Translations under genes and position numbers: made by a program
The notes under the pieces: generated by a model
Told to the model about the DNA's origin: nothing
What the model saw: only the letters and a program-made list of their open reading frames with translations
Databases searched by the model: none
NCBI GenBank assembly: GCA_964016885.1
Contig: OZ024745.1
Span: 73,904,001-73,968,000, forward strand
Direction of reading: 5' to 3'
DNA: 64,000 nt
From: Eledone cirrhosa
Lineage: Eukaryota
Shown here: one piece after another, positions 58,790-59,240 of the stretch
How positions within the stretch are numbered: position 1 is the stretch's first letter
Layout: the number at the start of each line of letters is the position of its first letter

Positions 58790-59240
58790 TGCGGATGAAG
58801 CCCAGTCAAGCCGAAAATGCATAGACGGTTGTCTCCCTTGCTTCTGCTGGACACAACCAGAGGGCGTTAGCCCCCGGTGTTTGCATAGCTACGGCTTCCT
58901 AAAACCGTGTTTCTTTAGAAATACGAAATTTCTATACATATTTGTATAAAGCTAAGCTTGAGGCGAAATCTTATTTCTATTCTATTATAATTTGAGCCAA
59001 CTTATGCAGCTTCATATGCAAATGAGATTAATCACCTCATTTACACAGACGAGAAAACTATATATTCTCGACTGTCTTCAAGTCCAGCAGCCGCAAGCGG
59101 TGGGAGGGACCGTTCTGAAGAAGGCCAGACAAGCCTGAAATGCATAGACGGTTCTGCTGAACACCACAAAACCGTGCTGGCTTCCTAAAACCGTGTTTCT
59201 TTAGAAATACGAAATTTCTATACATATTTGTATAAAGCTA
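58790..59240 (+). mobile_element. Retrozyme-like tandem element, HHR-to-HHR spacing about 323 bp
   Basis: TGCATAGACGG occurs at 58818 and 59141. Degenerate HHR at 58793-58830 and intact HHR at 59109-59152. Confidence 0.8.
59109..59152 (+). ncRNA. Minimal type I hammerhead ribozyme
   Basis: ACCGTT-CTGAAGA-AGGC-CAGACAA-GCCT-GAAA-TGCA-TA-GACGGT, AUA site. Confidence 0.9.

Follow-up and report, generated by a model that had tools for sequence, protein, structure and literature searches.

The window (the whole 64-kb stretch of DNA analyzed here, which is animal-type, AT-rich and microsatellite-rich, with a repeat content suggestive of a cephalopod or decapod) raises the question why 64 bp just upstream of a hammerhead ribozyme should be identical in two copies of an otherwise diverged repeat, and whether this block could serve the repeat as a promoter. 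A sequence-only reading of the same DNA had proposed an snRNA-type promoter of octamer, PSE-like element and TATA box, carried by each unit for the transcription of the next.

An invariant block in a high-copy hammerhead repeat

The repeat family concerned, family A/B, is represented in the window by the following features:

58792-59269, plus strand: copy A (some 1.5 units, unit length 323 bp), the 3' end lying in T runs ahead of a microsatellite
59007-59070, plus strand: invariant 64-bp block of copy A, identical to that of copy B, with the peak of summed contig depth at 59011-59050
59016-59023, plus strand: octamer ATGCAAAT in the block of copy A
59028-59049, plus strand: PSE-like stretch with TCACC at 59032, which can also form a hairpin with the end of the octamer
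59059-59064, plus strand: TATATA, in the loop of the hairpin 59050-59070
59106-59155, plus strand: type I hammerhead of copy A, core at 59115, predicted cut after 59146
38412-38876, minus strand: copy B (some 1.4 units, unit length 328 bp), hammerhead core at 38580, predicted cut after 38549
38625-38688, minus strand: invariant 64-bp block of copy B, identical to that of copy A
38877-38899, plus strand: inverted segment of 23 bp at the 5' end of copy B, the inverse of 38453-38475
48054-48139, minus strand: third copy of the family, 5'-truncated, consisting of the tail only and ending in a T run before a TA tract

In agreement with the sequence-only reading, 59007-59070 is exactly the reverse complement of 38625-38688, with zero extension on either side, the two copies lying in opposite orientation within the window. 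The order of octamer, TCACC, TATATA and hammerhead core was confirmed as well, with the core 44 bp past the end of the block (about 45 bp had been given) and TATATA in the loop of a hairpin, as claimed. Divergence of the surroundings was borne out by a unit-level alignment, in which the A and B units are 67% identical across the 271 columns outside the block (a value slightly lowered by the aligned B segment being 6 bases short at its 3' end), the next-longest identical runs there being 19 and 18. The hammerhead stems have likewise diverged between the copies, stem II of A and B differing by three compensatory double changes in four pairs. When the A/B mismatch events were shuffled, an identical run of at least 64 arose in 19 of 200,000 cases. 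As for the octamer, which we take to be a POU/Oct-1 site, the motif alone is not rare, since the window contains three on both strands taken together and 3.5 are expected by chance; its non-random feature is thus its placement, all three lying upstream of hammerheads on the sense strand.

Conservation across further copies was followed by mapping one contig run (X1, possibly the window's own sample, with 4,609 contigs placed) and three RAD runs to 58671-59270 with a likeness threshold of 80%. Summed depth in X1, which is no copy number, is maximal at 59011-59050 (209,231 and 182,039), compared with 44,000-52,000 for the hammerhead stems, roughly 16,000 for the AT-rich middle and 3.1 for the flank; coverage nearly equal to the maximum is found outside the block at 58831-58850 (131,600) and 58891-58910 (125,212 plus 43,537 on its duplicate). 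Among the variants listed (40 of 104, at 38 places, with variation inside the block possible among the other 64), the longest variant-free gap is 58992-59069 with 78 nt, followed by gaps of 53, 45 and 44, and as many random places as there are variant places listed avoid the block in 346 of 100,000 draws. In RAD reads from 1-3 starts, 59070 is variable and one nucleotide is deleted at 59054. By peak depth and by the longest gap among the variants listed, the block stands above the rest of the unit: it is the best-conserved stretch of a high-copy hammerhead repeat of about 325 bp.

From cut site to cut site, the unit comprises 323 bp in copy A (58824-59146, GC 0.43) and 328 bp in copy B (38876-38549, GC 0.39). 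Both hammerheads are of type I with a one-pair stem III and a closing palindromic tetraloop, which is TGCA in copy A, where stem II has 4 bp; copy B contains one mismatch in stem I. Copy A also bears a degenerate truncated hammerhead at 58792, and its second body is internally deleted. The 5' end of copy B coincides exactly with the predicted cleavage site, after the 23-bp inversion, and is thus consistent with cleavage. Rfam yielded no match at gathering score over the hammerhead motifs and no hammerhead match over 58700-59300 with E values up to 10; four sub-threshold Rfam matches were taken as chance. Copies A and B are 1.4-1.5-mers with one complete hammerhead each, and DNA reads over the family unit contain joints reaching back 309-319 bases, i.e., head-to-tail units.

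On the basis of its sequence, the family is filed here as a high-copy repeat of the non-LTR retrozyme type with a type I hammerhead, for which cleavage and circles are predicted. With metazoan non-LTR retrozymes, as far as these are described in the parts of the sources available (Cervera and de la Pena 2020, PMC7229834; Li, Clavereau and Pollet 2026), it has in common the type I hammerhead, a non-coding unit within 150-450 bp, a GC content under 50%, partial tandems and Penelope-like elements in the same genome; the axolotl HHR_Amex1 of the former source shares the one-pair stem III with palindromic tetraloop and cleaves efficiently as a dimer. Retrozyme tandems have at least two complete hammerheads; the individual copies in the window have fewer than two, beside the head-to-tail joints in DNA reads of the family.

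Partial tandems, 5' inversions and microsatellite ends typify Penelope-like insertions, according to the available portion of PMC8557442. All three occur here, the microsatellite ends being of TA type, and a Penelope-like element (PLE) is represented in the same genome by a weak GIY-YIG remnant at 55482-56081 (plus strand; Pfam E 0.00075, below the cut-off; Atlas score 0.95-0.96). This Penelope-type remnant lies between inverted hammerhead-bearing repeats at 54720 (minus) and 57375 (plus), within 54620-57560, and is possibly a relic of the mobilizing partner.

The window contains a whole range of further repeats. Hammerheads of a family D at 24424 (plus), 45196 (minus) and about 22452 (minus) carry, upstream of the core, GCGCATGCGC at 56-58 nt and CTTCCTG at 31-33 nt in all three copies, two of which form an inverted pair around 22776-24100; these motifs, which we take to resemble NRF1 and ETS sites, are suggestive of a different internal promoter of the Pol II housekeeping type. 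Head-to-head inverted hammerhead pairs with a 6-nt palindromic loop III (TATATA or TACGTA) are located at 10304 (minus)/10408 (plus) and 26714 (minus)/26783 (plus), with further copies of this type at 31819 and 10863. Single core candidates of other families at 37703 (minus) and 50735 (minus) were missed by the strict finder, and a short inverted repeat at 33070-33110 has CTGATGA on both strands; hammerhead stems were looked for there and none were found. Other features are a 37-bp tandem array at 12332-13748 (38 copies, 97% matches), a degenerate satellite at 60445-62600 with 19-31-bp units and orientation switches, TA-type tracts at 48141-49634 (1.5 kb, adjoined by a retrozyme tail) and 51415-54355 (2.9 kb), and a broken LINE-like remnant at 4000-5540, whose zf-RVT match is weak (E 0.0095, below the cut-off).

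A second hammerhead family with the same layout

The same succession of motifs is found in another hammerhead family, termed family C, which is represented by:

34257-35001, plus strand: family C copy, about 1.5 copies of a 472-bp unit (34463-34934), with a 5' inversion
21745-22208 and 2690-3087: other partial family C copies
34568-34621, plus strand: counterpart of the block, with octamer at 34568, TCAGCC at 34584 and TATATA at 34610
34649-34693, plus strand: type I hammerhead, core at 34656, palindromic CTAG loop III, predicted cut after 34686

The unit is slightly longer than the retrozyme range of 150-450 bp, and same-strand blastn gave no significant match between family C and family A/B. 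The octamer is nevertheless placed 16 bp before TCA in both families (the octamer end 8 bp before TCA), TATATA follows TCA at 27 bp in A and 26 bp in C, and the distance from octamer start to TATATA is thus 43 and 42 bp, respectively. TATATA to hammerhead core measures 56 bp in A and 46 bp in C. In family C, TATATA is part of a perfect 16-bp palindrome (34605-34620), and it is kept also in the diverged copy at 2999-3087.

When seven other upstream regions were dinucleotide-shuffled, 5 of 20,000 shuffles produced octamer and TATATA 41-45 bp apart in at least one region, and 2 of 20,000 the complete layout of octamer, TCA and TATATA, the windows of the test having been set around the family A spacing. 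Among the seven real regions tested, the layout is missing from six. The three-motif pattern has three matches in the window and none in 100 shuffles of it, a count without independent weight, both families having supplied the pattern. Based on a faint likeness around the block, families A and C may share ancestry; whether or not they do, motifs and spacing have outlasted the rest of the unit.

Comparison with snRNA promoters and with other hammerhead repeats

In the available portions of the literature, the octamer is ascribed a role in snRNA promoters, where in vertebrates it usually resides at -250 to -170, and a TATA box downstream of the PSE selects Pol III (PMC9652321), vertebrate Pol II snRNA promoters having no TATA (PMC2220036, PMC9652321). 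PSE and TATA box are separated by 15-18 nt in human Pol III genes, with TATA 20-25 bp before the start (PMC11696126). Insect PSEAs conserve T5, C6 and C8, PSEB being placed at 30 and the TATA box at 34-36 (PMC1761439), and the H1 promoter combines octamer, Staf site, PSE and TATA within a compact core of 84 bp, in which octamer and PSE are close neighbors (PMC11340601).

The block resembles snRNA promoters in the order of octamer, PSE-like element and TATA upstream of a predicted start, and the arrangement that marks type 3 Pol III promoters, TATA downstream of a PSE-like element, is present at 59059 and 34610. The term PSE refers to a likeness judged against human and insect PSEs, from which the host's own PSE may differ. 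Compared with insect PSEAs, family A has T5, C6 and C8 (T59032 being position 5) and TATATA at 32, and family C has T5 and C6 only, C8 being absent, and TATATA at 31, so that the PSE-TATA distance of the block is 2-3 bp short of the insect distance. With an 18-bp PSE counted from TCA, the gap to TATATA is 9 bp in A and 8 bp in C as against 15-18 in human Pol III genes. The human Pol III geometry is thus not reproduced, in keeping with the earlier remark that the spacing is tighter than in vertebrate U6. The block also differs from snRNA promoters in that the octamer abuts the PSE-like stretch and does not take the distal position at -250 to -170, that the octamer-TATA span is only 42-43 bp, that there is no room for a Staf site, and that the putative promoter is situated inside a replicating unit. 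A candidate Staf/SPH site upstream of the octamer was rejected by eye because A and B differ there. Publications dealing with the U6 promoters of shrimp, schistosome and sea star revealed no compact octamer layout in the portions of text available.

Taken together, the proposal of an snRNA-type promoter gains from the conservation of the block and from the layout in family C, and the short gap speaks against its plain U6-type label. We regard the block as probably a built-in, compact snRNA-type promoter of octamer, PSE-like element and TATA just upstream of the ribozyme, an assignment that draws on motifs and their spacing.

The ends of the inserts bear on the question of the polymerase. Five of the six defined 3' ends (copy A, the copy at 48054-48139 and three of family C) are located in or just after a run of at least four T, and these T-run ends lie 33-44 bp before the octamer position; the 3' end of copy B lies 75 bp before it. 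No such T run is present in the read-through tails of A and B. An A-to-T change at 58979 creates it, T accounting for 8,699 of 19,062 in X1 depth (46%). This combination of T-run ends and variant fits Pol III termination with a leaky variant; T-run ends could alternatively stem from priming on T/A-rich targets. T4 runs are also present in the read-through path, four in family C and two in copy B, and would hinder efficient read-through by Pol III. TATA and T-run 3' ends favor Pol III, and the length of the gap counts against it. Of the weight given to the promoter reading, the larger part falls to Pol III, which we assign tentatively, and the remainder to Pol II, which in itself appears doubtful.

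Promoters inside hammerhead repeats have precedents. The newt satellite 2 promoter was reportedly found by Coats, Zhang and Epstein in 1994 to be made of octamer and PSE, and the Pol III promoter of schistosome hammerhead repeats is of the tRNA type, unlike the octamer/PSE-like/TATA block described here; a tRNA gene search of the 64-kb window found none. In the published descriptions as far as available, the promoter of newt satellite 2 is of the snRNA type and used by Pol II (PMC2220036, PMC6765202), and newt and salamander satellite 2 resemble family A/B in their tandem unit of about 330 bp, in their type I hammerhead and, if the block is what it probably is, in an internal snRNA-type promoter. 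The newt promoter, compared by description, is TATA-less, whereas the block of families A and C keeps TATATA. In the SINE-like repeats of schistosomes (Ferbeyre et al. 1998, via PMC6765202), a Pol III promoter precedes the hammerhead, each copy is transcribed from the promoter of the one upstream of it, and a copy standing alone cannot propagate. Given these precedents, the principle of an internal promoter is already known. On the other hand, an element promoter is not part of the accessible retrozyme texts, in which the word promoter occurs twice, both times for T7 (PMC7229834), or not at all (Li, Clavereau and Pollet 2026).

What appears to be new is the compact, TATA-containing octamer/PSE-like layout common to two hammerhead families that cannot be aligned. 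A promoter of this kind shared by two retrozyme families was not described in the literature searched, older papers lying mostly outside that search. Exact 20-21-base pieces of the block had no match in metagenome_contigs or genome_contigs, which are prokaryote-centered. The octamer-TATA-CTGANGA pattern occurs in at least 117 stretches of metagenome_contigs; among the 117 listed, none has TCA[C/G]C at 7-9 bp, four have TCA, one has a loose stem II and none has both. In viral_contigs, the layout pattern without ribozyme gave 24 matches, one of which has a loose hammerhead-like regular expression match, and these were taken as chance.

Alternative readings and the proposed cycle

The block may instead have been kept for the sake of the RNA. 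It folds into two hairpins, the first formed by the octamer end and the PSE-like stretch and the second holding TATATA, in family A (z -4.0, reached by 0 of 200 shuffles) as well as in family C (z -2.6, 4 of 200). Such hairpins might bind a Penelope-type reverse transcriptase/endonuclease or a host protein, or act through the UAUAUA loop, whose self-complementarity might aid the RNA pairing that dimeric hammerhead cleavage involves, with transcription occurring by read-through; we consider a constraint of this sort unlikely, yet not negligible. The first hairpin goes beyond what the sequence-only reading had described and keeps an RNA-level explanation alive. Both hairpins are retained in whole-circle folds of B and C, whereas in the circular fold of A only the TATA hairpin persists and long-range pairing replaces the first; the whole circles have folding energies far lower than those of base-shuffled controls, in line with reports on retrozyme RNAs. 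The arms of the TATA hairpin differ in sequence between A and C, palindromic TATATA is loop III of other hammerheads of the window too, 3' ends cluster just upstream of the block, and retrozymes seem to be without promoters, and read-through has been proposed (PMC7761336, a 2020 review, in the part available). What speaks against an RNA element as the main cause is that stem II has been compensated in three of four pairs right beside a block that is unchanged between A and B, which points to a constraint on letters rather than on pairing, and that A and C have in common octamer, TCA and TATATA at fixed spacing, not stems. A role of the block as a DNA motif is therefore favored as the main constraint. 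Since a DNA promoter has no need of hairpins, an additional RNA role is likely, and the two can coexist.

Two further explanations dispense with a dedicated snRNA-type promoter. Recent gene conversion, or template switching of reverse transcriptase between two subfamilies, would make A and B identical without special selection on the block; the window has only two full copies and its Penelope-type inserts are mosaics with inversions and deletions, as this scenario would have it, but over thousands of contigs the block is the deepest stretch and the longest free of variants among those listed, and family C retains the layout, which renders conversion very improbable. Still less credence is given to a Pol II promoter inherited from the pseudo-LTR (pLTR) of an autonomous Penelope-like element, a POU site plus TATA box in which the likeness to a PSE would be coincidence. 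In the accessible parts of the sources, pLTRs of Penelope-like elements bear promoters and hammerheads (PMC6765202) and retrozymes are proposed to derive from pLTRs (bioRxiv 10.64898/2026.07.22.740005), and in family D other motifs resembling factor sites recur at constant distances. Against this origin, the hammerheads flanking the GIY-YIG remnant are without an upstream octamer, and the octamer-TCA spacing is exact in both A and C.

If the block is indeed a promoter, the host factors Oct, SNAPc and TBP would bind it and start transcription about 20-25 bp past TATA, at about 59085-59090. Cleavage by the hammerhead, whose one-pair stem III and palindromic loop make action as a dimer probable, would then remove some 60 nt of leader. 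Where an array has more than two units, read-through transcripts that reach the following hammerhead would yield unit-length RNA that contains the promoter sequence of the next unit, and a Penelope-like reverse transcriptase/endonuclease might copy multimeric or circular RNA into TA-rich targets. As the copied RNA includes the promoter, inserts longer than one unit would regain an upstream promoter. The notion that each unit drives the next fits this anatomy and the behavior described for schistosome repeats in the available text of PMC6765202, yet it does not apply to A and B themselves, which carry a single hammerhead downstream of the block and hence could not yield unit-length RNA from a promoter of their own.

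A bolder version, in which the retrozyme unit has captured a complete, compact type 3 Pol III promoter that doubles as hairpins and in which the polymorphic T run gates termination and read-through, is in our estimation rather unlikely as a whole. If true, internal promoters and not passive read-through would explain the high expression of animal retrozymes, which are strongly expressed although the current model gives them seemingly no promoter (PMC7761336, in the part available), the newt and schistosome repeats being older exceptions to the promoterless model. The spacing shared by two unalignable families points to a specific element of 50 bp. If active, it would be a very short small-RNA promoter from a non-model invertebrate, and its thousands of dispersed copies would constitute potential Oct/SNAPc binding sites.
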